Shown here: one piece after another, positions 26,852 to 58,169 of the stretch
How positions within the stretch are numbered: position 1 is the first letter of the stretch
Layout: the number at the start of each line of letters is the position of its first letter
Origin: Burkholderiaceae bacterium
Lineage (GTDB): Bacteria > Pseudomonadota > Gammaproteobacteria > Burkholderiales > Burkholderiaceae_C
Direction: 5' to 3'
DNA: 58,169 nt
NCBI GenBank assembly: GCA_036752305.1
Contig: DAIOSZ010000001.1
Span: 2,556-60,724, forward strand
Translations under genes and position numbers: made by a program
The notes under the pieces: model-generated
Database searches by the model: none
What the model was told of the DNA's origin: nothing
Seen by the model: only the letters and a program-made list of their open reading frames with translations

Positions 26852-30127
<3,276 letters not shown>

Positions 30128-30131
<4 letters not shown>

Positions 30132-41339: not shown

Positions 41340-41908
41340 GCCCGGTCTCCCACTGTCGAGCAGGCCTGCGCGAAACGCAGGGCCAATGCCTTCAGACCAC
41401 GGTGGATGCCCACCTTGACTGCTGACTCGGACAGCCCGGTCAGCCGCGCGGTCTCGGCCACCGACAGGCCCTCGATCTTGACGCACTCAATCGGCCTGCG
41501 CTGCTTGTCCGGCAAGGTGTGCAGCATGCCCAGGACATCGCGCCGGGCGTCGCTGGCCTCGGTGTCGCTGGCGGCAAACACCGCCAGCTCGTCGTCCAGC
41601 GGCACATGCAGCGCCTCGCGCCCCGAGCGAGCGCGCAGCAGGTCGATCAATTTGTAGCGCGCGATCGCCTGTACCCAGGCCACGAACACCTGGTCAGGTT
41701 GGTAGGTGTGGCGCTGGTTGTGCACCGCCAGCAGACATTCCTGCACGAGATCCTCCACGTCATCGGGCCAGCCGAACAGGCGCCGACCCACCCAGGCGCG
41801 CAGATGCGTGGCCAGCCGTTGCAAAAAGCGCCGGTACGCGGTTTCGTCGCCATCCAGGCTGCGCAACAGCAGACCGCGCAGCTCAACTTCGACATCCGGC
41901 TTTGACAT
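41336..41908 (-). CDS. ECF (group IV) RNA polymerase sigma factor, SigF-type
   Basis: Region 2 ([17 protein letters not shown]) and region 4 HTH ([28 protein letters not shown]). It is paired with an nrsF-like gene. Confidence 0.9.
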
Positions 41909-41927
41909 CCATCACTCCGTATCCCTA

Positions 41928-41953
41928 TTCGCGCCCGCCGTGGTTGCGGTTAC
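41928..41953 (-). promoter_or_regulatory. ECF-type promoter GTAACC-N16-CGAA upstream of the sigma gene (autoregulation)
   Basis: The minus strand reads GTAACC GCAACCACGGCGGGCG CGAA. The -10 element lies about 20 nt upstream of the sigma ATG (41908). Confidence 0.6.
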
Positions 41954-41994
41954 AGCCTCCGCAAAAAAAAGACAAGTCTTTCTCAGCATCGACT

Positions 41995-42020
41995 GTAACC
42001 AGACCGGTGAACGGTGCGAA
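41995..42020 (+). promoter_or_regulatory. ECF-type promoter GTAACC-N16-CGAA upstream of the DUF2282 precursor gene
   Basis: The plus strand reads GTAACC AGACCGGTGAACGGTG CGAA, 60 nt upstream of ATG 42081. It has the same hexamer, tetramer and spacing as the divergent copy. Confidence 0.65.
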
Positions 42021-42080
42021 AGAGGATGCAACCGCGCCATATCGGCCCGGTTCGATCTCAACCTGTCAAGGAGCTCAAGC

Positions 42081-42365
42081 ATGACCACCCTATCCAAAAC
42101 CCTGACGGCCGCCGGCCTCGCCGCGCTGGTCGCCACCGCCGTGCAGGCCCAGACACCAATGGGTGACAAGGCCGCCGCGATGGAAAAGTGCTACGGCGTC
42201 GCCATGGCCGGCAAGAACGATTGCGCCGCGGGCCCAGGGACCACCTGCGCCGGCACGTCCAAGACCGACTACCAGGGCAATGCCTGGAAAAACGTCCCGG
42301 CAGGCACCTGCACCGGCATCAAGACGCCCAAAGGCATGGGCTCGCTGGCGCCCATCAAGGCCTGA
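42081..42365 (+). CDS. bufA: DUF2282 secreted Cys-containing peptide, bufferin-type RiPP precursor (BufA1-like)
   Basis: AAGGAG RBS. Sec signal peptide [23 protein letters not shown]. The core has four Cys in contexts EKCYG, NDCAAG, TTCAGT and GTCTG. Confidence 0.85.
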
Positions 42366-42391
42366 CCGTCGCCCTCCCCCGCGTGCCCACC

Positions 42392-43243
42392 ATGTCCGCC
42401 CCGCTGTGCGCCGGCCTCGGCCTCAAGCCCGAGCACTTCGACCAGGCGCTGGCCTGTCGCCAGTCGGGCCTGTGGTTCGAGATCCATCCGGAAAACTACC
42501 TGGTGGACGGTGGGCCGCGCCTGGCCTGGCTGGAGGCCATTCGCAGCGAGCATCCGCTGTCGGTGCACAGCGTCTCGCTGTCGCTGGCGGACAGCGAGCC
42601 GCCGGACCAAGCGCGGCTGACCCGGCTGGCGGCGTTCGTGCGGCGCTTTCAGCCAGCCCTGGTGTCCGAGCATCTGGCGTGGTCGTCCTGGCGGGGCCAG
42701 TACCTGCCCGACCTGCTGCCCTTTCCGCGCACCCACGAGGCGCTGTGCGTCGTTGCCGCGAATATTGATCGGCTGCAGAACGCGCTGGGCCGCATCGTCG
42801 CCATCGAGAACCCGGCCCACTACCTTGATCTGCCGGGTCATGACTGGCCGGAGCCAGAATTCCTGGCCGAACTGGTCCGTCGCACCGGCTGCCGCCTGCT
42901 GCTGGACTTGAACAACGTACGGGTATCGGCGCACAACCTGGGCACGACACCCGCCGACTATCTGCGCGACTTTCCCCTTCATGCGGTCGTTGAGCTGCAT
43001 CTGGCGGGCTACAGCGCCGACCCGAGGCTCGGCGATGCGCTGTGGATCGACTCGCACGACGCTCCCGTGTGCGAGGACCTGTGGTCCTTGCTCGCCGGGC
43101 TGCTGGCTCGCACCGGCCCGCTGCCCACCCTGATCGAACGCGACGGGCATCTCCCCGACTTCGCCGAACTGCGGCTGGAAGCCGAGCACGCGCGGCGCCT
43201 GCTGACAGTCCAGGCCGACAGCGCGGCGCTGGTGGACGCATGA
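42392..43243 (+). CDS. bufB: DUF692 / MNIO (multinuclear non-heme iron oxidative) enzyme, BufB-like
   Basis: GLGLKPEHF...WFEIHPENYL..GGPRL..LEAIR..HPLSVHSVSLSL is the typical DUF692 N-terminus. Start is ATG 42392. Confidence 0.9.
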   Translation: MSAPLCAGLGLKPEHFDQALACRQSGLWFEIHPENYLVDGGPRLAWLEAIRSEHPLSVHSVSLSLADSEPPDQARLTRLAAFVRRFQPALVSEHLAWSSWRGQYLPDLLPFPRTHEALCVVAANIDRLQNALGRIVAIENPAHYLDLPGHDWPEPEFLAELVRRTGCRLLLDLNNVRVSAHNLGTTPADYLRDFPLHAVVELHLAGYSADPRLGDALWIDSHDAPVCEDLWSLLAGLLARTGPLPTLIERDGHLPDFAELRLEAEHARRLLTVQADSAALVDA

Positions 43244-44013
43244 ACCCCACTCTGGCCGAGTTTCAGCGCCAGTTCGTCCAGGCTCTGCAAGACGATGGCG
43301 GTGCCGCCGCCGACCCTGCATGGGTCCGCCAAGGCGGCTTTGCCGTCTACCGCAACACCGGCCGCCTGGCCTGCCGGGACGCGCTGCGCGCCAACTACCC
43401 CGTGGTTGCGCGGCTCGTGGGCGCCGACTGGTTCAACGCCGCCGCGGAGCACTATCTGCGCGATCATCCGCCCGCGGACAGCCGGCTGTTGCTGTACGGC
43501 GCGCGATTTCCCGACTTTCTGGAGCCGCTCGCGCGCGCGCATGACCTGCCTTATCTGGTCGAGGTAGCCCGTCTGGACCGCGCCTGGACCGAAGCGCACG
43601 CCGCTGCCGACGCCTCCCCCTGGCAGGCCGATCAACTGGCCGCGCTGCCTCCCGAGGCCTTGGCGACTCTGGTGCTCAGGCCGCACCCCGCTGCCCGCTG
43701 GCACTGGAGCGCCCAGGTTCCGGCCTTCACCCTCTGGTCGCGCCACCGCGCGGACGATGAGCCGAGTTGGGGCGATCTGATTTGGCAAGGCGAGGGCACG
43801 CTGCTGACGCGCGCCTGGGGGGTCGTTCGCTGGGAACCGCTGTCTCGGGCAGGCTGCGCCTTTTTGCAAGCCTGCGCCGATGGCCTGCCCTTGCCCCGGG
43901 CGCTGCAAACCCTTGATGCCCTGGAAACCCAGGTGGACCGGGGCGCGCTGCTCGGTCGCTTGCTGCAGCAGGGTGCTTTTCAACCGCCGTCCGATGAGAG
44001 AACCTCCGCATGA
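43240..44013 (+). CDS. bufC: DUF2063 protein, MNIO partner (BufC-like)
   Basis: The ATG at 43240 overlaps the bufB stop (ATGA). The N-terminus LAEFQRQFVQALQDD is typical of DUF2063. Confidence 0.8.
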   Translation: MNPTLAEFQRQFVQALQDDGGAAADPAWVRQGGFAVYRNTGRLACRDALRANYPVVARLVGADWFNAAAEHYLRDHPPADSRLLLYGARFPDFLEPLARAHDLPYLVEVARLDRAWTEAHAAADASPWQADQLAALPPEALATLVLRPHPAARWHWSAQVPAFTLWSRHRADDEPSWGDLIWQGEGTLLTRAWGVVRWEPLSRAGCAFLQACADGLPLPRALQTLDALETQVDRGALLGRLLQQGAFQPPSDERTSA

Positions 44014-44450
44014 ACGCCTTCACCGCCTGGCACAACGCCATGCTCCTCAAACTGGAATCCCTGAGCCCCGCCGACCTGCTCGCGCTGGCTGCCCGCCTGG
44101 GGATCGCCGCGGTGTTCTGGCAATCCGGCCGCACCAAGGTGGACGAGCAGTTCCACGTGACCGACAGCGCCATCGCGCTGTTCACCGACGAATTCAAGCT
44201 CCCCTTGCTGGACCCGGCATTCGCTGCCCATCTGGCCGCCTACGCCGAGCATCTGTTTCCGCTGCTCCTGGCGCTCGGCCTGCTCACGCGGCTGTCGGCG
44301 CTGGCGCTGCTGGGCATGACGCTGGTGATCCAGATATTCGTCTATCCGGATGCCTGGCCCACCCACCTGAGCTGGGCAGCCATTCTGCTGTTGCTACTGC
44401 ACCATGGCGGCGGGCGCCTGTCAATGGACGCGGTGCTCGGACTGCGCTGA
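44010..44450 (+). CDS. DoxX-family membrane protein
   Basis: ATGA overlap with the upstream gene. Four TM helices and a DoxX pattern (RLGIAAVFWQSGRTKV). Confidence 0.85.
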   Translation: MNAFTAWHNAMLLKLESLSPADLLALAARLGIAAVFWQSGRTKVDEQFHVTDSAIALFTDEFKLPLLDPAFAAHLAAYAEHLFPLLLALGLLTRLSALALLGMTLVIQIFVYPDAWPTHLSWAAILLLLLHHGGGRLSMDAVLGLR

Positions 44451-44538
44451 GGTCCTGCACGCCCGGCGCCACGGCTGCCCACGCCAACCAGATCACCCAC
44501 GTTCACCGGGGGCGGGCGTCGATCATGCCCTCGGGCGG

Positions 44539-45477
44539 CTATGGCTGCTGCTCGGCGCGCCGCTGTGAGCGGCGCGTGGGCGGCATGAGCTCGTTGCTGG
44601 TCACGCCGCCAGCGGGCGCGGCGTTGTTGGCCGGGTCGCCAGCGTTGGTCACTTCGCGCGAGGCCGCCGTGTTGCCGCCCGAGACGCCAAGGCGCCCGCC
44701 CGTGCCCAATCCGCCGCGCACCTCCTGCGCCTGATAGTTGCGCAACGCCACGACCATCTGGTTGTACGAATCGATGAACGCCGCGACGATGAGCTTGCCT
44801 TCGGGCGTGTTGGTAAAGCCGCCCGCGCCGCCGCCACCCAAGCCGCCGAACAGCCCACCGAACAGGTTGAAGTCGGTGTTGCGCGAGCTCCCCTCGGCGG
44901 CGGCGAGCTGCACGCCGGAACGGTTGTCCACCAGGGTCAGCATGGTCGAGGCGTCGCTGAATTGCACGCTGCCGGCCAGCGCGCCCGCCAGGCCGCCGGC
45001 GAAGCGGCCCAGCGCCGCGCCCAGGCCACCGGTGCCTTGCTGGCTGAAGGTGATCGTCGGATTCATCGTGTAGTCGGCCGACACCATCTGGCCGCGCCCA
45101 AAGTTGCTGCCCTGGCGCAACTCGCCGCTTTGCTGCAACGCGCGTTCCTGCGCCATGTTGCGCATGGCCGCGCCGCGCTCGACCACGACGAAGCAGCCCG
45201 ACTGCTGAACCAGCATCCGCAGCACCGGCAGCGTCGATTGCAACCGATGGCTTTGCATCTGCATGAACCAGGGCTGGGTGCTGTCTTCCACCAGCGCGAT
45301 GGTGCCCAGCGCGGCGGGACACCGTTCTAGCTGGGTGTTCGCGTTGTGGCTGCCGGCTCCGGCTGCCGAGCCGGTGGCGGCCGTGCGCGCGTTCTCATTG
45401 CCGATGGTCTGCGCGGCGGCCTGACTTCCCAGCAGCGCCGTCGCCAGCGCCGCGACCATCCAAGGGGTTTTCTTCAT
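44539..45477 (-). CDS. secreted CsgG/HfaB-like protein with Gly-rich C-terminal region
   Basis: AAGGAG RBS before ATG 45477 and a signal peptide ending AAAQ. The order of IALVED.., GCFVVVERG, SADYTMNPTITF and LTLVDNRSGVQ resembles the CsgG fold; this call is tentative. Confidence 0.5.
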   Translation of the reverse strand: MKKTPWMVAALATALLGSQAAAQTIGNENARTAATGSAAGAGSHNANTQLERCPAALGTIALVEDSTQPWFMQMQSHRLQSTLPVLRMLVQQSGCFVVVERGAAMRNMAQERALQQSGELRQGSNFGRGQMVSADYTMNPTITFSQQGTGGLGAALGRFAGGLAGALAGSVQFSDASTMLTLVDNRSGVQLAAAEGSSRNTDFNLFGGLFGGLGGGGAGGFTNTPEGKLIVAAFIDSYNQMVVALRNYQAQEVRGGLGTGGRLGVSGGNTAASREVTNAGDPANNAAPAGGVTSNELMPPTRRSQRRAEQQP

Positions 45478-45580
45478 ACCCGTCACTCCTTCATCATTGA
45501 AGAAGATTATGGGAGGAAAACCCCCGGCCAGACCGTAGCCAAACGTTTCCGATTTTGGTGAATATGCCCGTTGCCGCAGC

Positions 45581-46996
45581 CTACATCGAGAAGATCTTGC
45601 CCGGATTCATGATGCCTTGCGGGTCGAGCGCGCGCTTGAGCGTGCGCATCATCGCCACCGCGCCGTCACCGGCTTCGTTGATCAGAAAATCCATCTTGTG
45701 CAGGCCCACGCCATGCTCGCCCGAGCATGTGCCGCCCAGCGAGAGGGCGCGCGCGACGAGTTGCCGGTTCAACTGTTCCGCGCGCTCGCGCTCGGCGTCG
45801 TCGAGCGGATCGATGAGATAGCCAAAGTGGAAGTTGCCGTCGCCCACGTGGCCGACGAGGAAGTACGGAATGCCGCTGGCGTCAGCCTCGGCCACCGAGT
45901 CGAGCAGGCAGTCGGCCAGGCGCGAGATCGGCACGCAGGTGTCGGTGGAAATGCAGCGGCAGCCCGGCCGGCTTTGCACCGCCGCAAAATATGAGTTGTG
46001 CCGCGCGGTCCACAGGCGCGTGCGCTCCTCGGGCGTGGTCGCCCACTCAAAGCCCGCGCCGCCATGTTCAGCGGCAATGGCCTGCACGGTCTCGGCCTGT
46101 TCCTTGACGCTCGCGGGCGAGCCATGGAATTCCATCAGCAGCATCGGCGTCGGCGCCAGGGACAGCTTGGCGTAGCGGTTGACCATGGCGACGGTGTTGG
46201 CGTCGATCAGCTCCACGCGGGCGATGGGCACGCCAAGCTGGATCGTCTGGATCGTGGTGTTCACCGCGTCGGCGATGCTGGGAAACGAGCACACGGCCGC
46301 CGAGATCGCCTCGGGCAGCGGATACACGCGCAGCGTGACCTCGGTGATGATGCCCAGCGTGCCCTCGCTGCCCACGAACAGGCGCGTGAGGTCGTAGCCG
46401 GCGCTGGACTTCTTGGCCCGCGTGCCGGTGCGGATGACCTCGCCCTGCGCCGTCACCACCTCCAGCGCCAGCACGTTTTCGCGCATCGTGCCGTAGCGCA
46501 CGGCGTTGGTGCCGCTGGCCCGGGTGGCCGTCATGCCGCCAATGCTGGCGTCGGCGCCAGGGTCGATGGGGAAAAACAGTCCCTCGTGCTTGATCGCCTC
46601 GTTGAGCGTCTTGCGCGTCACGCCGGGCTGCACCGTCACCGTCAGATCCTCCGGCTGCGAGACCAACACGCGGTTCATGCGCGAGACGTCGACGCTGATG
46701 CCGCCCTGGACCGCCAGCAAATGGCCTTCCAGCGAGGACCCCACGCCAAAGGCGATCACCGGCGTGCCATGGGCGGCGCACAGCTTCACGGCGTCCTGCA
46801 CGTCCTGCGTGCTTTCGGCGAACACCACGCCGTCGGGCGGCGGCACGGCCACGAAGGCCGACTCGTCGCGACCGTGCTGCTCACGCACGGCGGTGGCCAC
46901 GGAAAAGCGCTCGGCAAAGCGCGCGCGCAGCGCCTCCAGCAGGGCAGCGGGGGCGGTGCGGGGCGCGAGTTGCGCGCCAGATAACGGTGCATTCAT
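45581..46996 (-). CDS. FAD-linked oxidase (GlcD / D-lactate dehydrogenase family)
   Basis: 471 aa with an FAD-binding PCMH domain (VIAFGVGSSLEGH) and a C-terminal GGTCSGEHGVGLHK motif. Confidence 0.9.
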   Translation of the reverse strand: MNAPLSGAQLAPRTAPAALLEALRARFAERFSVATAVREQHGRDESAFVAVPPPDGVVFAESTQDVQDAVKLCAAHGTPVIAFGVGSSLEGHLLAVQGGISVDVSRMNRVLVSQPEDLTVTVQPGVTRKTLNEAIKHEGLFFPIDPGADASIGGMTATRASGTNAVRYGTMRENVLALEVVTAQGEVIRTGTRAKKSSAGYDLTRLFVGSEGTLGIITEVTLRVYPLPEAISAAVCSFPSIADAVNTTIQTIQLGVPIARVELIDANTVAMVNRYAKLSLAPTPMLLMEFHGSPASVKEQAETVQAIAAEHGGAGFEWATTPEERTRLWTARHNSYFAAVQSRPGCRCISTDTCVPISRLADCLLDSVAEADASGIPYFLVGHVGDGNFHFGYLIDPLDDAERERAEQLNRQLVARALSLGGTCSGEHGVGLHKMDFLINEAGDGAVAMMRTLKRALDPQGIMNPGKIFSM

Positions 46997-47083
46997 GGCG
47001 GGGCGGGGTCAATGGCGGAAGGCGCAGTTTACGTGCGCGGCGCCGATAATCCCAGCCCCTTATTTGTCCAGGAGGAATGCCGC

Positions 47084-47650
47084 ATGGGTAACCGTCTCTC
47101 GCAAATCGCCACCCGCACCGGCGACGATGGCACCACCGGGCTGGGCGACGGCGCGCGCGTGCCCAAGAACCATTTGCGCATCGCGGCAATGGGTGAAGTC
47201 GATGAACTGAACTCGCACATCGGCGTGCTGCTGTGCGAGGCGCTGCCCGACCGCGTGCGCGAGCAGCTGGTGGACATTCAGCACCAGCTCTTCAACCTGG
47301 GGGGGGAGTTGTCGATTCCCGGCTACGAGCTGCTCAAGGAGGAGGCCGTGGCGGCGCTGGACGCCGCGCTGGCCGAACACAACGCCACGCTGCCCCGCCT
47401 GGCCGAGTTCATCCTCCCGGCGGGCACGCGCGCGGCCTCGCTGGCGCATGTATGCCGCACGGTAGCGCGGCGCGCCGAGCGCGCCGTCGTCACGCTGGGC
47501 CAGGCAGAAACGGTGCGCGCGGCCCCGCGCCACTACCTCAACCGCCTGTCGGACCTGATGTTTGTGCTGGCCCGGGTGCTGAACCGCCAAAACGGCGGCG
47601 ACGACGTGTATTGGAAGAGTGAACGGCTGGCTCGGGAACTACAAAAATAG
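47084..47650 (+). CDS. PduO-type ATP:cob(I)alamin adenosyltransferase
   Basis: AGGAGGA RBS. The N-terminus TRTGDDGTTGL and DELNSHIG are typical of the PduO/MMAB family. Confidence 0.9.
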   Translation: MGNRLSQIATRTGDDGTTGLGDGARVPKNHLRIAAMGEVDELNSHIGVLLCEALPDRVREQLVDIQHQLFNLGGELSIPGYELLKEEAVAALDAALAEHNATLPRLAEFILPAGTRAASLAHVCRTVARRAERAVVTLGQAETVRAAPRHYLNRLSDLMFVLARVLNRQNGGDDVYWKSERLARELQK

Positions 47651-47825
47651 TAGCTGCCCGTGGTGATGAAATAAGCGATTTTGCCCAATTGCGGGCTAAA
47701 AGCGGGCGCAAAAACCCGGCTTGCCAACCCACCGGGCAGGCCATTAGCCATTTTTCTAACGAAAGGTGGTGTTTTTCATCATCAAAATGGCCTGTCTTCT
47801 AACAAATACAACCACGACCAGCTAT
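47651..47825 (+). repeat. MITE-like intergenic element, copy C (175 bp)
   Basis: It starts immediately after the pduO-type stop. TIRs are TAGCTGCCCGTGGTGAT (47651-47667) and the reverse complement of AACCACGACCAGCTAT (47810-47825). An internal GGCAGGCCATTAGCCATTTTT block is present. Confidence 0.55.
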
Positions 47826-47850
47826 GAAATTTGTTATCAAAATTCATAGC
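47821..47850. promoter_or_regulatory. 30-bp near-perfect palindrome upstream of the calpain-like gene (candidate operator)
   Basis: GCTATGAAATTTG-TTAT-CAAAATTCATAGC has 13-nt arms with 12/13 complementary. It lies 67 nt upstream of ATG 47917. Confidence 0.35.
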
Positions 47851-47916
47851 AGGCGGAATGAAGCCCTCGTTGCCTACGATACGAACGCCCTTCATTGACT
47901 CAGCCCCGCCAGCGCC

Positions 47917-49933
47917 ATGCCCAATCGAACCGACACCGACAGCGGTTATGCCCGGTACCTCTCCAACGCGGTCCTCTATGTGGACGCCCATGAAACCTGG
48001 AAAGTCGGCGAGGCGGGGCAGACCGTCTCGCAGTACCTGACGATCACCGCCAGCGGCCTGACGCAGCTGAGCGACGCCACCACCGGCATCACGGCGCAGG
48101 CCATCGCCAAGACGCCCACGGGTTACCTGCTGTTTGGCGTGTCCAACGCCGATCCGGCCATGTTCTATTCCGCGACCGTCAACACCAGCGGCGTGATCAC
48201 CGACGCGCAGGCGCTGAGTACCGAAGACCTGCTCACCGCGGAAACCAAGCTCTGGGTGGACCTGAATGGCAACGGGGGCATTGGCGACCGCAAGGTCCTG
48301 CTCAACGACGGCATGCTGGCCGACCTGTACGCCGATGGCCTGGGCCATCTGCTCATCAAGGGAGATCTGGGCGCCTTCACGCCACTGCACCTTGGCGGCA
48401 AGGCGCTCACGCAGGCTGCGCTCGGTGACGCGCTCAGCATCACGCAGATCGTCCCCGGCGGAGGGCTTTCAGGCATATATCAAGGACGACAACGGCAGCG
48501 TGTACGAAGCTGGAGTCAGCGCATCCGGCGCCGCCACCGGCGCGGTGCGCCTGCTGTCGGCCGCCGAGGAACAGGCGCTGGAGTCCAGCGTGCAGGCCGA
48601 TCTGAACCAGAAGGGCGATACGCCCGCCCCCTCGGGGTGGACCAGCATGCTCAAGGTCTCGGCGATCCGGGAGAAGGTCGATCAGCTCGGCGCCAACGGG
48701 CAGAAGATCGGCCACGCGGGCCTGGTGAGCATCGTGGACGCGGCGATCGCCAGCCTGGGCGCGGACAGCACCACGGTCTCGCCAGACGTGATCGGCGACC
48801 TGCGCGCCATCGCCATGCGCGGCAAGGCGCTGTTTGCCTCCACCTCGGCCGACGGCAACACGCACGGCGACTACCTCAGCGACGTGTTCGGCAGCATGGT
48901 GGGCTCGTCGGCGGCCAACAACTTCTACACCGGCGGTCAGAAACAGGCTACGGCGCTGGGCAACCTGAGCAGCGAGTCCACCGTCGCGCAGCTCAAGCAG
49001 TTGGAAGCAAAATGGCTGCTCGGCCTGGACAACCCCAACCCGACCATCGAGGGCGACTCCGCCAACCCCAACGCCAGCGCGGCCTCGGGCGTCTACAAGA
49101 CCTTTGAGGGCAGCCTGTTCGTCGATGGCATCTCGTTTGCCGACGTGGCGCAGGGTTCGGCCGGAACCTGCTATCTGCTGGCCGTCGCGGCGGCTTTCGC
49201 TCAGGACCGGCCCGGTTTGATCGAGCAGCTCTTCGTCGACAACGGCGTCTCGGCCTCGGGCGTGCACACCTACGGCGTGCGCCTGTTTGACGCGCAAGGC
49301 GTGGCGCATTGGGTCACGGTCAGCAACCAGTTCGCCGTCAAGGACCTGTCCGACACCGAGCCCCTGTGCGCCAAGCTGTTCGCGCCGGGAACGAGCGGCA
49401 CGCCGGAGTTGTGGATGGCGCTGCTTGAAAAGGCCTACGCGCAGATGAACGAAACCGGGCTGCTGGAACGCGACGGCGCCAACAACGGCAAAAACGCCCT
49501 GTTCGCCATTGAAAACGGCGGCGCCGAGCCCGGCATCTTCCTGGGCGCCAGGGGCGTGGTGGGCTATGCCACCGATGTCCTGGCTCCGGTGACCGTCAAC
49601 GGCGTCGCGGGTTACGAGGCGCGGCCGGTGCCGGCGGGCAACACGGCCCTTGCCGAGGTCGCGAAGTACGTCAACGGCGGCCAGGCCGTCTGGATCAGTT
49701 CAGAAAAAGTGACCCGGGACACCGCAGGCAAAACCCTGTTCACCAACGGCCACGCCTACATGGCCTACGACGCCGACCCCGGCAACCCGACCAACACCAG
49801 CGTCCAGGTGTTCAACCCCTGGGGCGCAACGTCCGCCGCCAGCGACGCGGGCTACGTCGCGCCGTTTGCCGCCGACCTCGCGCAAATCGTCGGCGTGACC
49901 GGGTTCGAGGTGTACATGTTCGGCATCGCTTGA
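47917..49933 (+). pseudogene. calpain-like (peptidase C2) cysteine protease with N-terminal Ca-loop repeats, interrupted by a 1-nt insertion near 48455-48465
   Basis: Frame 1 (47917 to about 48462) and frame 2 (about 48463 to 49933) together give roughly 671 aa. The calpain triad contexts are QGSAGTCYLLA (Cys codon 49169), NGHAYMAY (His 49751) and FNPWG (Asn 49814), plus LWMALLEKAYAQ. The 2017-nt span is one more than a multiple of 3. Confidence 0.75.
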
Positions 49934-50028
49934 GGAGGAGACTTCCTGCGCAACCGCCGTGGGCATGAAACGTTCTCGCCGACACGACGCGCTATCATTT
50001 CTGCTCCTCGGCGCAACCGGTGCGATCG

Positions 50029-52134
50029 ATGCGTGTTCCTACCCCCTTTGTTCCTCAGATTCGCCTGTACCAAGACTGGTTGCGTGAGCAGCGCGGCCTG
50101 AGCTTCGACAGCTACGACGCGCTGTGGCGCTGGTCAACCACCGAGCTGACCGCGTTCTGGCAAAGCATCTGGGACTATTTCGACTTGCGCTCGCCCACGC
50201 CGTGCACGGCGGTGCTGGAGCGCAATGTGATGCCGGGTGCCCGCTGGTTTGCCGGCGCTTCGCTGAACTACGCGGCGCAGGTGCTGCGGCATGTGGACGC
50301 GGCGCACGCCGCGGGTTTTCCCGCCATCGTGTTCCAGGACGAACGTGCAATGGCGGCCGGGCGCGCCGCGCGCGAGCTGGGCTGGCCCGAGTTGCGCCGG
50401 CAGATCGCTGCGCTGGCCCTGCACCTGAAGGCGCAGGGCGTGCGCCCGGGCGATCGCGTCGCGGCCTATCTGCCGAACATTCCAGAAACGGTGGTGGCCT
50501 TTCTCGCCACGGTCAGCATCGGCGCCATCTGGAGCCTGTGCGCCCCCGACATGGGCAGCGCGGCCGTGCTCGACCGCTTCCGCCAGATCGAGCCAGTGGC
50601 GCTGATTGCCAGCGATGGCGTGGTCTACGCCGGGCGTGAGATCGACCGCGCGGGCGTGGTCGCGGAATTGCGCGCCGCGCTGCCGAGCGTGCGGCACCTC
50701 ATCGTGCATGATCTGCTGCATGGCGCTACACAAAATTTAGCTGCTGAGGGTCGTCTTGCGGACATTCTGGCCCGAAACGATGCCCAAATCGAGGCGTTCG
50801 AGCCCGAGCCGCTGCCGTTCGAGCACCCGCTGTGGATCGTCTATTCAAGCGGCACCACCGGCCTGCCCAAGCCCATCGTGCACAGCCATGGCGGCACCGT
50901 CATCGTCGCGCTGGCGCTCAAGAGCCTGCACAACGACGTGGGCTGCAGCTACCACCCCAACAGCTGGGGCGAGCGCTTCCATTGGTACAGCACCACGGGC
51001 TGGGTGATGTGGAACGCCCAGGTCGCGGGCCTGCTCAACGGAACCACCTGCGTGATCTTTGATGGCAGCCCCGGCGGCTCCAAGGACAACCCGGACTGGA
51101 CGGTGCTGTGGCGCCTGGCCGCGCGGGAGGGGGTCACGTTCTTTGGCGCGGGCGCGGCCTTCTACGCCAATTGCCTGAAGGCGGGCGTCGATCTGGGCGC
51201 CTGCGGCGACCTCTCGCGCGTGCGTGCGCTGGGGACGACCGGCTCGCCCCTGTCGGCCGAGGTGCAGCAATGGGGGATCGACCAGTTTCGCCGCGTCCAT
51301 GGCCCGGCACCGGCCCGGGAGGACATGTGGTGGTGCAACATTTCCGGCGGCACCGACTTCGCGGGCGCGTTCATCGGCGGCAACCGCGAGCTGCCGCAGG
51401 TGCCCGGCGAGATGCAATGCCGCCTGCTCGGTTGCGCCGTCGAGTCCTGGAATGAGGAAGGCCGGCCGGTGCTCGGTCAGGTGGGCGAGCTGGTCTGCAC
51501 GCAGCCGATCCCCTCGATGCCGCTCCAGTTCTGGAACGACCCCGGCGGCCAGCGCTACTTTGGCAGCTACTTCGACATGTTCCCCGCCGGCCACGGGCGC
51601 CGGCCCGGTGGTGGCGACGCCGACGCCTCGTTCGGACCGGTCTGGCGCCACGGTGACTGGCTGCGCATCGGCAATCCCGAGACGGGCAGCCAAGGCTGCG
51701 TGATCTTTGGCCGCAGCGACGCGACGATCAACCGCCATGGCCTGCGCATGGGCACCAGCGAGATCTACAGCGCCGTGGAAGCGCTGCCAGAAGTCCTCGA
51801 CAGCCTGGTGATCGATCTCGAATACCTCGGGCGCGAAAGCTACATGCCGCTGTTCGTGCAGCTGCGCCCCGGCGCCGCGCTGGATGAAGCGCTGACGCGG
51901 CGCATCCACGACGCCATCAAGACCCAGCTTTCACCGCGCTTCGTGCCCGACGCCGTGTTCGCGGTGGCCGATATTCCGCGCACGCTCACCGGCAAGAAGC
52001 AGGAACTGCCGGTCAAGAAGCTGCTGCTTGGCCAACCCATGGAGAAGGTGGTCAACCGGGACGCCATGGCCAACCCGGGCAGCATGGACTGGTTTGCCGA
52101 CTTCGCCGCGCGCCGCGCGGCCGTGAGCACGTGA
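50029..52134 (+). CDS. acetoacetyl-CoA synthetase (acetoacetate-CoA ligase)
   Basis: N-terminus ...YDALWRWSTTELTAFWQSIWDYF and AMP-binding motif YSSGTTGLPKPIVH, about 700 aa. I prefer the ATG at 50029 over the GTG at 50020. Confidence 0.9.
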   Translation: MRVPTPFVPQIRLYQDWLREQRGLSFDSYDALWRWSTTELTAFWQSIWDYFDLRSPTPCTAVLERNVMPGARWFAGASLNYAAQVLRHVDAAHAAGFPAIVFQDERAMAAGRAARELGWPELRRQIAALALHLKAQGVRPGDRVAAYLPNIPETVVAFLATVSIGAIWSLCAPDMGSAAVLDRFRQIEPVALIASDGVVYAGREIDRAGVVAELRAALPSVRHLIVHDLLHGATQNLAAEGRLADILARNDAQIEAFEPEPLPFEHPLWIVYSSGTTGLPKPIVHSHGGTVIVALALKSLHNDVGCSYHPNSWGERFHWYSTTGWVMWNAQVAGLLNGTTCVIFDGSPGGSKDNPDWTVLWRLAAREGVTFFGAGAAFYANCLKAGVDLGACGDLSRVRALGTTGSPLSAEVQQWGIDQFRRVHGPAPAREDMWWCNISGGTDFAGAFIGGNRELPQVPGEMQCRLLGCAVESWNEEGRPVLGQVGELVCTQPIPSMPLQFWNDPGGQRYFGSYFDMFPAGHGRRPGGGDADASFGPVWRHGDWLRIGNPETGSQGCVIFGRSDATINRHGLRMGTSEIYSAVEALPEVLDSLVIDLEYLGRESYMPLFVQLRPGAALDEALTRRIHDAIKTQLSPRFVPDAVFAVADIPRTLTGKKQELPVKKLLLGQPMEKVVNRDAMANPGSMDWFADFAARRAAVST

Positions 52135-52139
52135 ATCGG

Positions 52140-54536
52140 ATGGCACGACCGACCCGGTGGCGCTGGCTCGCGCTGGCCCTGCTGTGGCTGTCGCTCGCAG
52201 CCGGCGCGGTACACGCGGCGGTGCCCGTCTGCCCGCTCCCGCTGGACGGACTGCGCATCGATACGCTGGCATCGACCTGGATCGACCCCACCGGCCAGGC
52301 CGACGCGCGGCAAGCCCGCGACCAGTTGGCGCGCGGCGCGTTCCGCTCGCACGCCTCCACCAGTCCGCCCAACTTCGGCTTCGTGTCGGGCGCGCTGTGG
52401 GCGCATCTGATGCTGCCGGAGGTCAAGGAGCGCTGCACCGTGCTGCTGGTCGTGGGCAAGACGCGCATCGGACGCGTGGACGTGTTTCTGCCCGGCATGG
52501 AGGGCGTCAACAGTCCCCTGGCGATGGGCTCCGACCTGCCGTTTGCCGAGCGCACGGTTGAAAGCCGCTTCCCCAACCTGCGCATCGAGCGCGAACCGGG
52601 GGGGCCCACGCCGCTGCTGCTGCGCGTGGTCTCGCAGTCGTCGATCCAGTTGCCGCTGACGCTGCACACCGCCGCCTCGCTGTATCGGCTGCGCAGCCTG
52701 GAGATGCTGCCCGTGGGGCTGTTTCTCGGCCTGATGTTCGGCGTGCTGCTGTACGACTTCGCGGTGCTGCTGGGCACCAGCGACCGCAACTACGCCTGGA
52801 TGTCGGCCTACGTCGTCGCCGTCATCTTTTATGCGCTGACTTATCACGGGTACGCCTTCGAGTACCTTTGGCCCGACAGCCCGGCGATACAGCAGCGGGC
52901 ATTCCCGATCGCTGCTGCCGCGTTGCTGATTTCGGCGCTGGGCTTTGTCGCGGCGTTCCTGGGCGCCCGGCGCAATGTGCGCTGGGGTTGGATCGGCGCC
53001 AAAGTCATGACGGCGATGTTCGTCGGGGCGGCGCTGATCAGCGCGGCCGGCTATGTGCAACTGGCCTCGCGCATCGTGGCGGGCGCGGCGCTTCCCACGG
53101 TGGCGCTGGCCTGCGCCATCGGCTGGTCGCGCATGCGCAGCGGCTCGCGCTCGGCACGGTTGATCCTGGCGTCCTGGGTGTTGTTCTTGTTGTTCGCGGC
53201 GGCCACCCCGTTGTCGGCTTTCGGCCTGATGCCGCGCACCTTTCTCGGCGACTATGGCGCGCAGGTGGGCGCCATCGTGCAGATGAGCGTGCTGGCGGCC
53301 GCGCTGATGCTGCGCATCGAGGGCTTGCGACGCGAACGCGAGCGCCTGCGCATGGATCGGGAGCTGTCGGCTCAGCGCCGGGAACTGGAAAACCGGATTG
53401 AGGACGAGGAAGCCGAGCGCACGGCCCTGCTGGACACCATGCGCGTGGCGATCCTCTATGGCTCGGCCGAAGGCGAAGTGCAGTGGTGCAACGGCGAGGC
53501 CGAAACCTTGCTTGGCACGCGGCTGGGTGAGCTGCGGGGCAAGACTCTGGAGCACATGTTCGACCACCCCGATGAATACCAGCGCAGCCGCGCCGACTTC
53601 CGGGAGGCGGTGGAGCGCGGCGAGTTCTACGACGCGGAAGTCAACCTCACACGGCCCGACGGCGGCCGCATCTGGGCATTGGTCCGCGGCCGCGCCCTGG
53701 TCCTGGAAGAGCCGGAGCGCGGCAACGTCTGGTGCATGCTGGACATCACCTCGCGCAAGACGGCCGAGAACGAGTTGCGCAAGGCGTTGTCGGGCCAGCG
53801 CGAGCTCACGGCGCTCAAGTCACGCTTCATCACGATGGCGTCGCACGAGCTGCGCACGCCGCTGGCCACGGTGCTGGCCAGCAACGAACTGTTCAAGCAT
53901 TTTCTCGACAACATGTCACCCGAGGAACGCCAGATGGCGCTCAACGCCACCGATGAAGCGGTGCAGCGCATCACCAAGCTGCTCGACGACGTGCTGCGGA
54001 TTGGCGAGACCGAGAACGGCGTCGTCTTCGAGCCCGCGCCCCTGTTGTTGCGCGCGTTCGCCGAGCGGCAGATCCAGGATGCGCTGGCCGCGCCGCAACC
54101 TCGGGGCGTGGCACCGCCCAGCGTGGAACTGGTGATCGCCCCTGAACTGGACGCAACGCCCGTGCTGGCCGATGCGAACCTGCTGGCTCAGATTCTCGCG
54201 CCCCTGCTGTCCAACGCCATCAAATACGCCAAGCCCGGTGGCGACGTGCGCGTGAGCCTCAAACGCAACGAAGGCGCGCTTGAGCTGGCCGTGCTCGACA
54301 ACGGCATCGGCATTCCCCCGAGCGACGTGGACCGCATCTTCGAGCCGTTTCACCGCGCCTCCAACGTCAGCTCGATCGAGGGCACCGGGCTGGGCATGCT
54401 GCTGGTCAAGCGCGCGGTCGAAATGCACGGCGGTGTCGTGACGATCTCCAGCCGCGCGGGCGAAGGCACCATCATCACGGTGCGGCTGCCCATGCCGGTG
54501 GCGGCGGCGCCGACCGCCGCGGTCAACCCGACCTGA
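52140..54536 (+). CDS. 7TMR-DISM sensor histidine kinase (extracellular DISMED2-like domain, 7 TM, PAS, HisKA, HATPase_c)
   Basis: Signal peptide, then seven hydrophobic helices and a coiled coil. A PAS-like segment follows, then the H-box MASHELRTPL, the N-box LLSNAIKYA and G-boxes DNGIGI / GTGLGM. Start is ATG 52140, or GTG 52131 overlapping the upstream stop. Confidence 0.85.
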   Translation: MARPTRWRWLALALLWLSLAAGAVHAAVPVCPLPLDGLRIDTLASTWIDPTGQADARQARDQLARGAFRSHASTSPPNFGFVSGALWAHLMLPEVKERCTVLLVVGKTRIGRVDVFLPGMEGVNSPLAMGSDLPFAERTVESRFPNLRIEREPGGPTPLLLRVVSQSSIQLPLTLHTAASLYRLRSLEMLPVGLFLGLMFGVLLYDFAVLLGTSDRNYAWMSAYVVAVIFYALTYHGYAFEYLWPDSPAIQQRAFPIAAAALLISALGFVAAFLGARRNVRWGWIGAKVMTAMFVGAALISAAGYVQLASRIVAGAALPTVALACAIGWSRMRSGSRSARLILASWVLFLLFAAATPLSAFGLMPRTFLGDYGAQVGAIVQMSVLAAALMLRIEGLRRERERLRMDRELSAQRRELENRIEDEEAERTALLDTMRVAILYGSAEGEVQWCNGEAETLLGTRLGELRGKTLEHMFDHPDEYQRSRADFREAVERGEFYDAEVNLTRPDGGRIWALVRGRALVLEEPERGNVWCMLDITSRKTAENELRKALSGQRELTALKSRFITMASHELRTPLATVLASNELFKHFLDNMSPEERQMALNATDEAVQRITKLLDDVLRIGETENGVVFEPAPLLLRAFAERQIQDALAAPQPRGVAPPSVELVIAPELDATPVLADANLLAQILAPLLSNAIKYAKPGGDVRVSLKRNEGALELAVLDNGIGIPPSDVDRIFEPFHRASNVSSIEGTGLGMLLVKRAVEMHGGVVTISSRAGEGTIITVRLPMPVAAAPTAAVNPT

Positions 54537-54918
54537 GCGGCCCCACGGTCAGCGCGCCCGCGGCGTCCCGCGCGACAGGTACCGGCGTCAATGCCTCACC
54601 TTCGCAAGGCCCCCGCGTGCAGCGCCCATCCACCCAGTCGAACCGGGCGTAGTGGACGTTGCAGGTCAGCGAGGCCATCGGCTTTTGAATCAGTTGCGCC
54701 TGCTGCTCAGCCAGCGGAGCGCCGAAATGCGGGCAGCAGTTGACGAACGCGTGCACACGCTCGCCCTCGCGCAGCACGATCAGCCGCCACGGGCGCCTCC
54801 CACCCTCGCGGGGCAGGTCACACAGACTGGCGCGGTGGTCGGCGAAATCGGTCAGCCGGCCCAATGGGGTGCCGGTAGGCGGGAAGTCCAGGTGCGGCTC
54901 AGAACTGGGGTTTTGCAT
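54523..54918 (-). CDS. Rieske [2Fe-2S] domain protein (small, ferredoxin-like)
   Basis: CCPHFG ... CNVHYARF supply the Rieske ligands. Its 3' end overlaps the kinase gene 3' end by 14 nt (convergent). Confidence 0.75.
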   Translation of the reverse strand: MQNPSSEPHLDFPPTGTPLGRLTDFADHRASLCDLPREGGRRPWRLIVLREGERVHAFVNCCPHFGAPLAEQQAQLIQKPMASLTCNVHYARFDWVDGRCTRGPCEGEALTPVPVARDAAGALTVGPLRSG

Positions 54919-54968
54919 GGTGCGCAAGAAGGCTCGGGCCATTATGCTTGCGGGAAACTGACAACCGC

Positions 54969-55991
54969 ATGCCGCTCCTTATGTCCCACCTTCTCGCTTC
55001 ACACCGCTCCTGGAGCCGTCGCCAGGTCCTGGCGCGTACATCCGCCTGGCTGGGCACGGGCGCCGCAGCTTCCATGGCCCTTCCGGCATGGGCGCAGGAA
55101 CGCTTTCCCAGCAAGCCCGTCTCGCTCATCGCCCCCTGGCCACCGGGCGGCAGCAGCGACGCGGTGATGCGTGCCTTTGCCGAAAGCGCGGCGCGCAACC
55201 TGGGCAGCGTCGTGATCGTGGAAAACAAGCCGGGCGTGGGCGGCACGCTGGGCGCCAGCGCCATGCTGCAGGCCAAGCCCGACGGCCACGCGCTCACGCA
55301 GCTGCCGCTGGGCATTTATCGCCTGCCACACATGCAGAAGATGCCGTTCGACCCAGTGAAGGATCTGACGCACATCGTCTGCCTGACCGGCTATACCTTC
55401 GGGTTGGCGGCAACCATGGACGCACCCTACAAGTCGCTCAAGGAAATGGTCGCCTATGCCAAGGCCAACCCGGGCAAGGTCGCCTATGGCCACACCGGAA
55501 CCGGCACCACACCCCATCTGGCCATCGAGGAGTTCGCCGCCAAGGCTGGGATCGAGTTGCAGGACATTCCCTATAAAGGCTCGGCCGAGTTGATGCAGGC
55601 CATCCTGGGTGGCCACATCGCGCTCATCAGCAGCACCACGGAGTTTGCCCCGCACGTCAAAGCCGGCAAGCTGCGCCTGTTGGCGACGCTGGGCCGCGAG
55701 CGCAACAAGGCCTTTCCCGATGTGCCCACGGTCAAGGAGAGCGGCTGGGACACCGTGACCGAGTCGCCGTTTGGCATCGGTGGCCCCAAGGGCATGGACC
55801 CGGCTGTCGTCAAGACGCTGCACGACGCCTTCAAGAAAACGCTGGACGATCCCAAGGTGCTCGAAACGCTGGACCGCTTCTTCCAGCCGGTGATCTACAT
55901 GAACACGGCCGACTACACGTCCTATGCGGCGCGCACGTTCGCAGCCGAGAAGGCGTTGATCGACCGTCTGCGTGCCGCCAAGAAGATCTGA
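54969..55991 (+). CDS. Bug/TctC-family substrate-binding protein
   Basis: Twin-Arg-like signal (SRRQVLARTSAWLGTGAAASMALPAWAQ), then SLIAPWPPGGSSD and VIVENKPGVGG. Confidence 0.85.
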   Translation: MPLLMSHLLASHRSWSRRQVLARTSAWLGTGAAASMALPAWAQERFPSKPVSLIAPWPPGGSSDAVMRAFAESAARNLGSVVIVENKPGVGGTLGASAMLQAKPDGHALTQLPLGIYRLPHMQKMPFDPVKDLTHIVCLTGYTFGLAATMDAPYKSLKEMVAYAKANPGKVAYGHTGTGTTPHLAIEEFAAKAGIELQDIPYKGSAELMQAILGGHIALISSTTEFAPHVKAGKLRLLATLGRERNKAFPDVPTVKESGWDTVTESPFGIGGPKGMDPAVVKTLHDAFKKTLDDPKVLETLDRFFQPVIYMNTADYTSYAARTFAAEKALIDRLRAAKKI

Positions 55992-56032
55992 ATCTCCCCT
56001 GACATTCAATTTCCTCATCAAAGAAAGAGACC

Positions 56033-56377
56033 ATGAAGCGCATCACCTTCACCCTGCTGGCCCTTCTTCTGTCAGCCGGCGCGCATGCCGCTGGCGCCAT
56101 CGCCGTCGATGACGACGAAGGCGAGGACGAGCCTGGCTACGGCTTCGTCACCGGTGCCGCGAACCGCGACGAAGCAGGCCGAAAGGCGCTGCAGGAATGC
56201 CGCAAGTCGGGCAACGACAACTGCAAGGTCGTCGCGCGCTTCGACACCTGCGGGGCATACGCCGCCTCCAAGAAGTACTACGGCGTCGGCTGGGGCAACA
56301 CCAAGGCCAAGGCCATCGATATGGCGCTGGAAAATTGCCGCGGCAAGTGCAAGGTGCACGTGGCCGAATGCGAGTGA
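56033..56377 (+). CDS. DUF4189 secreted Cys-rich protein
   Basis: Signal peptide followed by the GAIAVD...GYGFV...A...AL..C......CKVV..F..CGA.A....YYGVGWG..K..A...AL..C pattern. Confidence 0.7.
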   Translation: MKRITFTLLALLLSAGAHAAGAIAVDDDEGEDEPGYGFVTGAANRDEAGRKALQECRKSGNDNCKVVARFDTCGAYAASKKYYGVGWGNTKAKAIDMALENCRGKCKVHVAECE

Positions 56378-56390
56378 CCGCGAAGTGAGC

Positions 56391-57269
56391 TCAATCGGGC
56401 TGCGCGCTGTCGGGTAGGCGCGGCCCGAGCCGGCGCGTACCCCCTGGCGGCACGCGCTCGGCCATCCAGCGCAGCAGGTCCAGCCACATCTGGCGCATTT
56501 CGCTGTCCAACGGGGTGCGCAGCGCGCTGGGCAACTCGACCGTGACCACGGGAATGCGCAGGTGCACGCCGCCATAGTTGCCCAGGGAGCCGGGGAAGAT
56601 GCCCACCTGATCCAGGTACAGGCGGCCCAGACGCTTGGGCGGCGTGAACGGACCGTCGAAATCGAGCACCCCATAGGGCGCGTGAATGCTCAGAATGAGT
56701 TGCGGCTTGAAGGTCTTGATCTGCTCGTCGAGAAAGCGGCTTTCCGGCTCCGACAAGGCAGCCTTGCCGGGCCAGCGGCGCGGGTCGCGGCGGGTGCGCT
56801 TTTCCCAGTAGACAGGCGCCTCCTTGGCCCAGCCAGGCGTGGGAAAGTTGCGGTTGAGGTCCACGCCCGAGGCGTTGGTGCGCGTGGGCCGCGCCGCCAT
56901 GATCCCGTCGGGGTTGAGCGCCGGGATGAAGCGCCAATGCACGCGGTGAACGGCATCGGCTGGGGGCGTTTCGGCATGCAGCAGCCAGTGCAGCGCCAGC
57001 GAGACGGAGGACAACTCATCGCCGTGTATGCCGCCGAGCACCAGCACCCGCAAGTTGGCCTTGTCCGCGGGAATGTCGCGCGCCATGAGGGTTCGGCGCT
57101 GCACCGACCGGCCCTCGCTCGCCGCGAGCTGTGCGCGCTCGCACAGGGTACGGCTCACGTTCGGCAGGCGGCGCGGCATTTCATGGCAAAACAGCGATGA
57201 CGCATCCCCCGCGTGGCCGTGACCAGCCGTCAGACTCAAGGCAACCATCAGGGTGAAACGAAACAGCAT
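56391..57269 (-). CDS. M14-family zinc carboxypeptidase (MpaA-like murein peptide amidase)
   Basis: Signal peptide, zinc motif GGIHGDELSS (HxxE), NPDG and VDLNRNFP. Confidence 0.85.
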   Translation of the reverse strand: MLFRFTLMVALSLTAGHGHAGDASSLFCHEMPRRLPNVSRTLCERAQLAASEGRSVQRRTLMARDIPADKANLRVLVLGGIHGDELSSVSLALHWLLHAETPPADAVHRVHWRFIPALNPDGIMAARPTRTNASGVDLNRNFPTPGWAKEAPVYWEKRTRRDPRRWPGKAALSEPESRFLDEQIKTFKPQLILSIHAPYGVLDFDGPFTPPKRLGRLYLDQVGIFPGSLGNYGGVHLRIPVVTVELPSALRTPLDSEMRQMWLDLLRWMAERVPPGGTRRLGPRLPDSAQPD

Positions 57270-57374
57270 GGCACGGACGCAGGGGAACTCCTCCCGATTA
57301 TCCGCACGCCCACCGGCATGGCCGCGCGGCAGCGGGCTCGCGCGGCGCCGGCGGATTTCAGGTAGATTGCGGCC

Positions 57375-57878: not shown

Positions 57879-57884
57879 GGCGCG

Positions 57885-58169
57885 GTGAGTTCGGCGTCTC
57901 CCCCCGCGCGCCATGCGCACCTCGATGCGTTGGCCGTGAGCCTGCTGTTCGCGTGCTGCCTGTTCTGGGGCGCGCAGCAGGTGATGGTCAAGGCCACGCT
58001 GGCCGAGCTGGCGCCCGTCTGGCAGGCGGCGCTGCGGTTTGCCGGTGCCACGGTCTTGTTATGGCTGTGGTGCCGGTGGCGGGGCATCCCGCTCACGCAG
58101 CGGGACGGCAGCCTGCGCGGCGGCCTGCTCGCAGGCGTGCTGTTCGCCGGGGAGTTTGCGGCGCTGTAC
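57885..58169 (+). CDS. EamA/DMT-family transporter, 3' partial
   Basis: From GTG 57885 the frame stays open to the window end. It has hydrophobic helices with LFWGAQQVMVK and GVLFAGEFAALY. Confidence 0.65.
   Translation, partial: MSSASPPARHAHLDALAVSLLFACCLFWGAQQVMVKATLAELAPVWQAALRFAGATVLLWLWCRWRGIPLTQRDGSLRGGLLAGVLFAGEFAALY

Follow-up and report, generated by a model that had tools for sequence, protein, structure and literature searches.

The window analysed here is a 58,169-nt stretch of a Burkholderiaceae bacterium assembly (GCA_036752305.1, contig DAIOSZ010000001.1), and its subject is a calpain-family protease gene that is read in two frames. We conclude, with a probability of roughly 0.6, that this locus is a frameshifted copy of a gene that stands alone and is conserved among Burkholderiales from freshwater and soil, and that the intact product is an extracellular Ca2+-dependent calpain-type protease. 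The intact product has about 670 amino acids (aa) and three parts, i.e. two W_rich_C-type repeats, a helical middle domain and a CysPc protease core (Table 1). An initial annotation made from the letters alone had described the gene as a calpain-like C2 cysteine protease fused to Ca-loop repeats, and it had placed the limits of the open reading frame (ORF) correctly.

Removing one base near position 48460 joined the two frames into a 671-aa protein, hereafter the window protein, in which all four catalytic motifs quoted in the initial annotation were found, and a large protein search returned an intact orthologue, P0001, of 672 aa and 97% identity. The window protein matched Pfam Peptidase_C2 (PF00648) at E=1.7e-12 with 47.4 bits versus a gathering cut-off of 23.8, and this was its sole Pfam match at E-values up to 1; the same cut-off was passed by all 10 homologues rescanned (41–63 bits), while an NCBIfam scan of the window protein gave no match. 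A phmmer search against the PDB returned calpains only, and the profile of an alignment of 42 full-length homologues (A1; residue numbers below follow P0001) matched calpain-1 at E=1.2e-11, taking in both the QGxxGxC...ELWxxLLEKAYA block and the GHAY...NPWG block. In the order oxyanion Gln, Cys, His, Asn and Trp, the residues Q413, C419, H613, N634 and W636 were aligned to their calpain counterparts and were invariant in 42 of 42 homologues. An AlphaFold2 (AF2) model of P0001 built on A1 was confident, with a predicted local distance difference test score (pLDDT) of 88.5 and a predicted template modelling score (pTM) of 0.89, and the 10 best matches of this model in a Foldseek search of the PDB were all calpain cores (E 3e-8 to 2e-6, 308–326 columns). 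Judged from sequence and model, the window gene encodes a calpain-family (C2) cysteine protease homologue with a complete conserved catalytic set and a predicted calpain fold, so that the family assignment of the initial annotation is upheld by the profile score, by the structure prediction and by the invariant residues. The equivalents of calpain Ca-site 1 were located by alignment at V403, G405, D410 (Asp in 41 of 42) and E498 (Glu in 36 of 42). In calpain-2 this site comprises an aliphatic residue at 89, Gly91, Asp96 and Glu175, and site 1 alone survives in some bacterial calpain homologues, cyanobacterial ones included (Rawlings 2015, PMC4631099).

Two related units were also present at the N-terminus, as initially noticed. 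Comparison of the family sub-alignments of repeat 1 and repeat 2 by hhalign yielded P=1.4e-14 over 62 columns, and comparison of the wider stretches 18–121 and 134–234 yielded P=2e-14 over 96 columns; the units are therefore truly homologous, but the repeat length is about 105 aa rather than the proposed ~65 aa, because the homology reaches over these wider stretches. Each repeat in the AF2 model has beta-meanders, after which come a helix and a loop, and the terminal loops, recognized beforehand as Ca-binding-type, are well conserved among the 42 homologues: D115, N117 and G123 of loop 1 are invariant with N119, G120 and G121 at ≥90%, and in loop 2 D229 and N231 are each kept in 40 and D235 in 36 of the sequences. 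From this DxNxNG pattern the loops would be expected to bind Ca2+.

The repeats are of a known type and do not represent a novel unit of 65 aa. The N-terminus is a predicted pair of divergent W_rich_C (PF07483)-type domains, because near-full-length PF07483 alignments, profile matches and tiling by hidden Markov models (HMMs) all agree. The PF07483 matches obtained below the gathering cut-off span profile positions 3–102 of 105, with boundaries that agree with those of the internal repeat; such as in P0010, where residues 141–241, equal to the repeat 2 stretch, align to positions 3–102 of 105. A word-indexed protein search with the N-terminal profile gave 2 matches and was superseded by an exhaustive HMMER search, which gave 429 cluster representatives, many of them large proteins with 3–12 matched stretches. 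PF07483 proteins were matched by this profile at E 1e-64 to 1e-27, and all 10 representatives scanned were strong PF07483 proteins (E 1e-39 to 1e-105, 3–7 copies each). Conversely, HMMs of repeat 1 or repeat 2 alone tiled PF07483 proteins end to end with a period of ~105–115 aa. The architectures among the scanned proteins included M10 metalloprotease + Peptidase_M10_C + RTX + (W_rich_C)n and CAP + RTX + (W_rich_C)n, and their repeats share the unit length and a terminal DxNxDG loop with those of the window family; these loops gave weak matches to EF-hand and Dockerin models. By sequence similarity, the repeats are members of a family whose copies stand in tandem, in large numbers, in secreted proteins of the RTX and serralysin types. 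A polyubiquitin match of the N-terminus in the PDB profile search was rejected as an artefact of summing eight repeats, each with E ~100, and Foldseek with the N-terminal model gave beta-propeller-blade-like matches only (template modelling (TM) score <0.3), with no solved structure resembling a W_rich_C domain. The middle domain (residues 239–395), conserved and mainly helical, was matched by no Pfam family; it is common to cyanobacterial and planctomycete calpain homologues, and tblastn matches in cyanobacteria begin at residues ~235–290.

The full-length architecture was found in the Burkholderiales Xylophilus, Giesbergeria anulus, G. sinuosa, Simplicispira, Comamonas, Limnohabitans, Aquabacterium humicola, Pseudaquabacterium terrae and Rubrivivax, and also in single metagenome-assembled genomes (MAGs) of Propionivibrio and Thiotrichaceae. 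At least four cultured strains carry the subfamily, namely Giesbergeria anulus ATCC 35958, G. sinuosa CCUG 49452, Aquabacterium humicola RJY3 and Pseudaquabacterium terrae S2. A scan of species-representative genomes revealed none closer than 58% identity, and the Xylophilus homologue is already labelled ‘C2 family cysteine protease’ by NCBI. The gene order in the window and in the metagenome contig L001, the longest one carrying the P0001 gene, is FAD-linked oxidase, PduO-type cobalamin adenosyltransferase, protease, AMP-binding acetoacetyl-CoA-synthetase-like gene and 7TMR-DISM sensor kinase. Across nine genomic contexts there was no conserved neighbour, immunity-like ORF or secretion gene, PADLOC gave no match, and the 58-kb window contains no ATP-binding cassette (ABC) exporter or membrane-fusion gene of a type I secretion system (T1SS). 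Type VI secretion system (T6SS) or immunity genes, which the initial annotation had raised as possible neighbours, were accordingly not linked to the gene.

The window protein bears no RTX repeats (PF00353) by Pfam and no N-terminal hydrophobic segment, its best 12-residue Kyte–Doolittle mean being 0.58 versus 1.95 in P0040, the one family member with a Sec-type signal peptide; the reported lack of a signal peptide was thus borne out by hydropathy. Other members are more elaborate. C-terminal extensions of 142–455 aa were recorded for 10 of the 42 family members, with Pfam RTX (PF00353) in nine of these ten, and the tenth, P0030, has an extension of only ~7 aa and no RTX match. P0044 (1092 aa) is a dual-protease fusion, in which an M10-like metalloprotease (HEVLHSLGLKH) and RTX lie N-terminal to the (W_rich_C)2-calpain module, and further members carry SWM_repeat or DUF4214 domains. 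Tandem paralogues with SWM_repeat and DUF4214 were seen in one Burkholderiaceae MAG (L010 10001-12466 and 12525-15590), and proteins of ~2300 aa from two MAGs (L040 1453-8361 and L046 2326-9231) have He_PIG and Cadherin domains ahead of the calpain module. As to the orthologue neighbourhoods, no T1SS link was seen for the (W_rich_C)2 forms, but some relatives with RTX do have one: in the Burkholderiales MAGs L033, L034 and L036 a calpain + RTX + DUF4214 protein is directly followed by a 782-aa HlyB-type ABC exporter, and at three cyanobacterial loci (L066, L077 and L080) such an exporter lies within 6 kb of a calpain relative.

The state of the window copy was examined by comparison with metagenome contigs carrying the P0001 gene, of which 12 were read; the six compared here come from six samples. 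These six are mutually identical across the protease gene, and the window differs from them by ~50 substitutions and one indel, aligned as CCCCGG--CGGAGGGC in the window and CCCCAGCTCGGCGGGC in L001 and the other contigs. The deletion falls after codon 181 and splits repeat 1 from all downstream parts, so the hint in the initial annotation that the ORF needed repair was well founded. Programmed frameshifting was rejected, as no slippery site is present and L001, the close relative, reads in frame. L001 is collinear with the window over 41698..57985 at ~99% identity. Since the codon changes between the two comprise 21 synonymous and 15 non-synonymous ones, the latter mostly conservative, the substitution pattern shows a gene apparently under purifying selection until recently. 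Two explanations of the lesion were weighed. That the gene is intact in the organism, the 2-bp gap being an assembly or base-calling error and the full 672-aa protease being made, is given slightly less than an even chance: the intact allele is present on at least six contigs from several samples, the substitutions relative to it follow the purifying-selection pattern, and a second apparent frameshift of 1 nt at ~28770 in an AcrB-family gene hints at indel errors, so that an indel-prone assembly has to be reckoned with. On the other side, the protease lesion lies outside any homopolymer and is accompanied by two flanking substitutions, it is the only coding-region indel in the 15.5 kb common to window and L001, the two other indels being intergenic as real strain differences would give, and the substitution density of the protease gene is the highest of the 14 genes shared with L001 (18.8 substitutions/kb versus 1.4–14.5 for the other genes of the main aligned block). 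This raised divergence covers both synonymous and non-synonymous changes. We therefore judge the window copy to be probably a real and recent pseudogene rather than an assembly error, and, provided that the base calls are correct, it yields no functional protease. In the AcrB-family gene the protein reads ...SPITFNGL and then VRQYDLRELPEQG... over two frames, with CTGTT in place of the expected CTGGTT.

For the intact protein the extracellular reading is preferred because relatives carry RTX extensions, in one case a Sec signal peptide, surface domains and adjacent T1SS exporters. The intact protein would act outside the cytoplasm as a Ca2+-dependent endopeptidase and would probably be exported by a type I system or another non-Sec route, T1SS being, by analogy, the only export route that relatives of the minimal form appear to support. 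The W_rich_C repeats may fold or bind only at extracellular Ca2+ levels, and calpain Ca-site 1, with its ligands apparently retained, may help to align the active site. At the low Ca2+ of the cytoplasm the enzyme would then stay inactive, and that no inhibitor or immunity gene is linked would be in keeping with this. The fuller scheme, namely that the intact (W_rich_C)2-helical-CysPc proteins are calpains that are secreted and then gated by Ca2+ outside the cell, and that they stay inactive or unfolded inside, leave by a type I or other non-Sec exit without RTX and are switched on outside via the loops and site 1, is put forward tentatively as one possible course. Several observations weigh against the preferred account. 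The Foldseek TM-scores to calpain are only moderate, at 0.46–0.53 on the target; with only 38 residues beyond the catalytic Asn, the protein offers no alignable counterpart to the region of calpain Ca-site 2; PF07483 gives no match to the N-terminus of the window protein or P0001, and the matches of 6 out of 15 family N-termini stay below the gathering cut-off (17.5–22.6 versus 26.2 bits); calcium binding is a prediction from sequence; the T1SS-linked relatives are without the W_rich_C pair; and the window protein and most (W_rich_C)2 members are without RTX, signal peptide or secretion genes within 10 kb.

The main rival functional reading is that of a cytoplasmic Ca-regulated protease, in which the intact protein, like eukaryotic calpains, would be switched on by intracellular Ca2+ rises with the repeats as Ca sensor. 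The scarcity of signal peptides, RTX repeats and linked exporters among family members speaks for it, as do the apparently retained site 1 ligands and a survey suggesting that cyanobacterial PPC-CysPc proteins are cytosolic, since they have no transmembrane helices (PMC9380684). In all other contexts examined, however, the proteins with W_rich_C repeats show features of extracellular proteins (RTX, serralysin, CAP or dockerin-like), paralogous members carry RTX, a Sec signal peptide or SWM_repeat, Cadherin and He_PIG surface domains, and T1SS exporters adjoin relatives. Moreover, DxNxNG loops of the EF-hand-like and dockerin kind usually need high Ca2+, which we count against a cytoplasmic sensor, and the cytoplasmic protease is therefore held to be doubtful. 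An interbacterial or anti-eukaryote toxin effector of the T6SS or polymorphic toxin type, paired with an immunity protein, might be suspected from the patchy distribution of the gene across the phylogeny and from the fusion of some bacterial calpain homologues to the toxin-system domains WXG100 and Tox-PL (Rawlings 2015, PMC4631099). Such an effector is very improbable here, because no conserved partner gene exists: the nine contexts and PADLOC show no VgrG, PAAR, Rhs, small downstream immunity ORF or other match, and the gene downstream is the housekeeping-type acetoacetyl-CoA-synthetase-like one. The extracellular Ca2+-dependent protease is thus retained as the preferred reading.

Bacterial calpains were initially described as rare and essentially uncharacterised, in agreement with the literature: the catalogue lists 67 homologues (66 in another section) from seven phyla, all chromosomal and only three with signal peptides, and Porphyromonas gingivalis Tpr is the only one studied biochemically (Rawlings 2015, PMC4631099). 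The classical eukaryotic calpain core (calpain-1; PDB 1KXR, 1ZCM, 2ARY, 7W7O) belongs to the same Pfam family as the window protein and shares with it the order Gln, Cys, His, Asn, Trp, the motifs QGxxGxC, LLEKAYA, GHAY and NPWG, the whole two-subdomain core as aligned in Foldseek, and, on alignment, apparent equivalents of the Ca-site 1 positions. In contrast to classical calpains, the window protein ends just past the protease core and has, by Pfam, neither calpain-III/C2L nor penta-EF-hand domains; its PC2 is shorter, the Pfam profile being matched to ~244 of 297; it adds a helical domain of ~160 aa and two W_rich_C repeats N-terminally; and the identity is ~16–20%, with the second Ca-site lacking an alignable counterpart. 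The cyanobacterial PPC-CysPc proteins (e.g. Nostoc Alr0369; PMC4631099, PMC9380684) share the helical middle domain and the core, at 32–35% identity from ~235 onward, and are reported to retain site 1 as the Burkholderiales family appears to do, but they belong to another phylum and have an N-terminal PPC instead of 2 × W_rich_C. Tpr, likewise a bacterial C2-family peptidase, is inhibited by EDTA (ethylenediaminetetraacetate) and iodoacetate, and its activity and stability are reported to be Ca2+-regulated (Staniec et al. 2015, J Biol Chem 290:27248, as cited in PMC5266723); it differs in having no W_rich_C repeats and was not among the close relatives in the homology searches.

Combinations of a protease with Ca-binding repeats are known elsewhere. 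Gloeobacter violaceus Glr4140 (HemolysinCabind × 8, then Peptidase_C2; Rawlings 2015) joins a calpain core to the Ca-binding repeats of type I secretion, with the RTX nonapeptides at the N-terminus, whereas the Burkholderiales family has W_rich_C N-terminally and RTX only C-terminally in some members. Serralysin-type M10 + RTX + (W_rich_C)n proteins couple W_rich_C to a secreted-type protease, as here, and a Synechococcus (W_rich_C)2-(PPC)2-subtilisin (2008 survey, PMC2605481) has the same layout of two N-terminal W_rich_C followed by the protease; both differ in a metallo- or serine catalytic domain and in W_rich_C scores far above the Pfam cut-off, the window family being divergent. In the literature searched, no description was found of the (W_rich_C)2-helical-CysPc architecture or of its Burkholderiales subfamily, and the window gene genuinely, if modestly, extends the set of bacterial calpains, a group already known but hardly studied.

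Table 1. Coordinates of the protease gene, its parts, the upstream repeats and the second split gene in the window
Feature	Position	Strand	Basis or remark
Whole calpain-family protease gene	47917..49933	+	ATG at 47917, TGA at 49931-49933; two frames
Frame A	47917 to ~48460	+	396-aa ORF, ~181 codons meaningful
Frame B	~48461 to 49933	+	carries all sequence downstream of the frameshift
Putative W_rich_C-like repeat 1 (residues 18-121)	47968..48279	+	hhalign to repeat 2; single-repeat HMM tiling; AF2 model
Loop DLNGNGGIGD, DxNxNG Ca-type, end of repeat 1	48259..48288	+	conservation in 42 homologues
Putative W_rich_C-like repeat 2 (residues 134-234), broken by frameshift	48316..48616	+	hhalign; HMM tiling
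Frameshift site	48457-48462	+	2-bp deletion and two flanking substitutions versus six identical metagenome contigs
Loop DLNQKGD, end of repeat 2	48599..48619	+	conservation in 42 homologues
Helical middle domain (residues 239-395)	48629..49099	+	AF2 secondary structure, family conservation, tblastn
Predicted calpain CysPc protease core (residues 399-672)	49109..49930	+	Pfam PF00648, profile versus PDB calpains, Foldseek, invariant catalytic residues
Catalytic codons	Gln 49151-53, Cys 49169-71, His 49751-53, Asn 49814-16	+	translation
MITE-like intergenic element	47641..47834		terminal inverted repeats, core TAGCTGCCCGTGG; also in L001
Further copies of the element	20983-21209 and 32992-33155		inverted TAGCTGCCCGTGG pairs
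Near-perfect palindrome	47818-47853		16-nt arms, 88% complementary, 4-nt loop
AcrB/RND-family transporter gene, apparently split	26848-30131	+	junction ~28770, one G missing

Upstream of the gene, both the element resembling a miniature inverted-repeat transposable element (MITE) and the ‘30-bp palindrome’ of the initial annotation proved to be real. The element is bounded by the 13-nt inverted repeat TAGCTGCCCGTGG, at 47651 on the plus and 47824 on the minus strand, and with up to 2 mismatches this repeat has 8 matches in the window versus 2.1 expected, a number reached in 0 of 100 shuffles. In the palindrome, the right-hand terminal repeat of the element lies directly against a second, inverted copy of this repeat. 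Three intergenic copies, ~164–227 bp long and bounded by TAGCTGCCCGTGG...CCACGGGCAGCTA, make up an element family in the 58 kb; they share the sub-terminal motifs AAAATTGGCC and GGCCAATTTT, their interiors are variable, and on these sequence features they are classed as putative MITE- or REP-like (repetitive extragenic palindromic) repeats. Because it is also present in L001, the upstream element is not a recent insertion.

The G+C fraction is 0.47–0.53 in the 266-bp spacer, 0.635–0.665 in the coding 5′ part and 0.65–0.70 further on, so the AT-richer 5′ side that had been ascribed to the gene is not meaningfully so and is confined to the intergenic spacer. Since the gene body (0.635–0.70) agrees with its neighbours and only the spacer is AT-rich, the composition argument for an accessory origin fails, and the comparison with L001, which at 99% identity shows identical neighbours and also carries the upstream element, gives such an origin no support either. 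No regulatory feature was detected: an Rfam search of 47550-48000 returned no family and hence no riboswitch or small RNA upstream, a sigma-70 promoter scan found none, terminator-like sites were at chance level only, and 21 orthologue promoters shared no upstream motif or palindrome.

Elsewhere in the window, a BufA1 – MbnB/TglH/ChrH – HvfC_N – DoxX set was mapped from the L001 calls at ~42081-44450 (+), which by its Pfam names is a bufferin-type cluster resembling those of ribosomally synthesized and post-translationally modified peptides, and a CsgG-family gene at 44539-45477 (−) adjoins it. The genes at 6563-8968 (−), 9780-12029 (−) and 13611-16364 (−) comprise a GAF + MshEN + T2SSE secretion-type ATPase near two proteins with CHASE2 sensors, which are joined to an adenylate/guanylate cyclase domain in one case and to a Ser/Thr protein kinase domain in the other. 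Two acyl-CoA-dehydrogenase-like genes at 33976-34824 (−) and 34752-35912 (−) are both complete with a 73-nt overlap, and may represent a heteromeric acyl-CoA dehydrogenase pair; a third frameshift suspected in this region (33976-35912) was rejected, as the two are complete adjacent genes.

For the window itself, the gene is disrupted and the annotation due is that of a frameshifted C2-family peptidase, and the interest of the locus is lower because this copy is broken. The value lies with the family. The analysis ties the uncharacterised W_rich_C repeat, with its 429 cluster representatives, to protease architectures, and the presence of the subfamily in cultured strains, with apparent site 1 ligands and Ca-loop repeats together, would provide a convenient system for studying Ca-dependence and export. 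The Burkholderiales subfamily would bear on the question of whether the calpain Ca2+ switch predates eukaryotes. If its members are secreted, Ca-gated calpains, they would make it possible to study the origin of the calpain calcium switch in a tractable bacterial model, and the widespread W_rich_C repeat would receive its first functional assignment.

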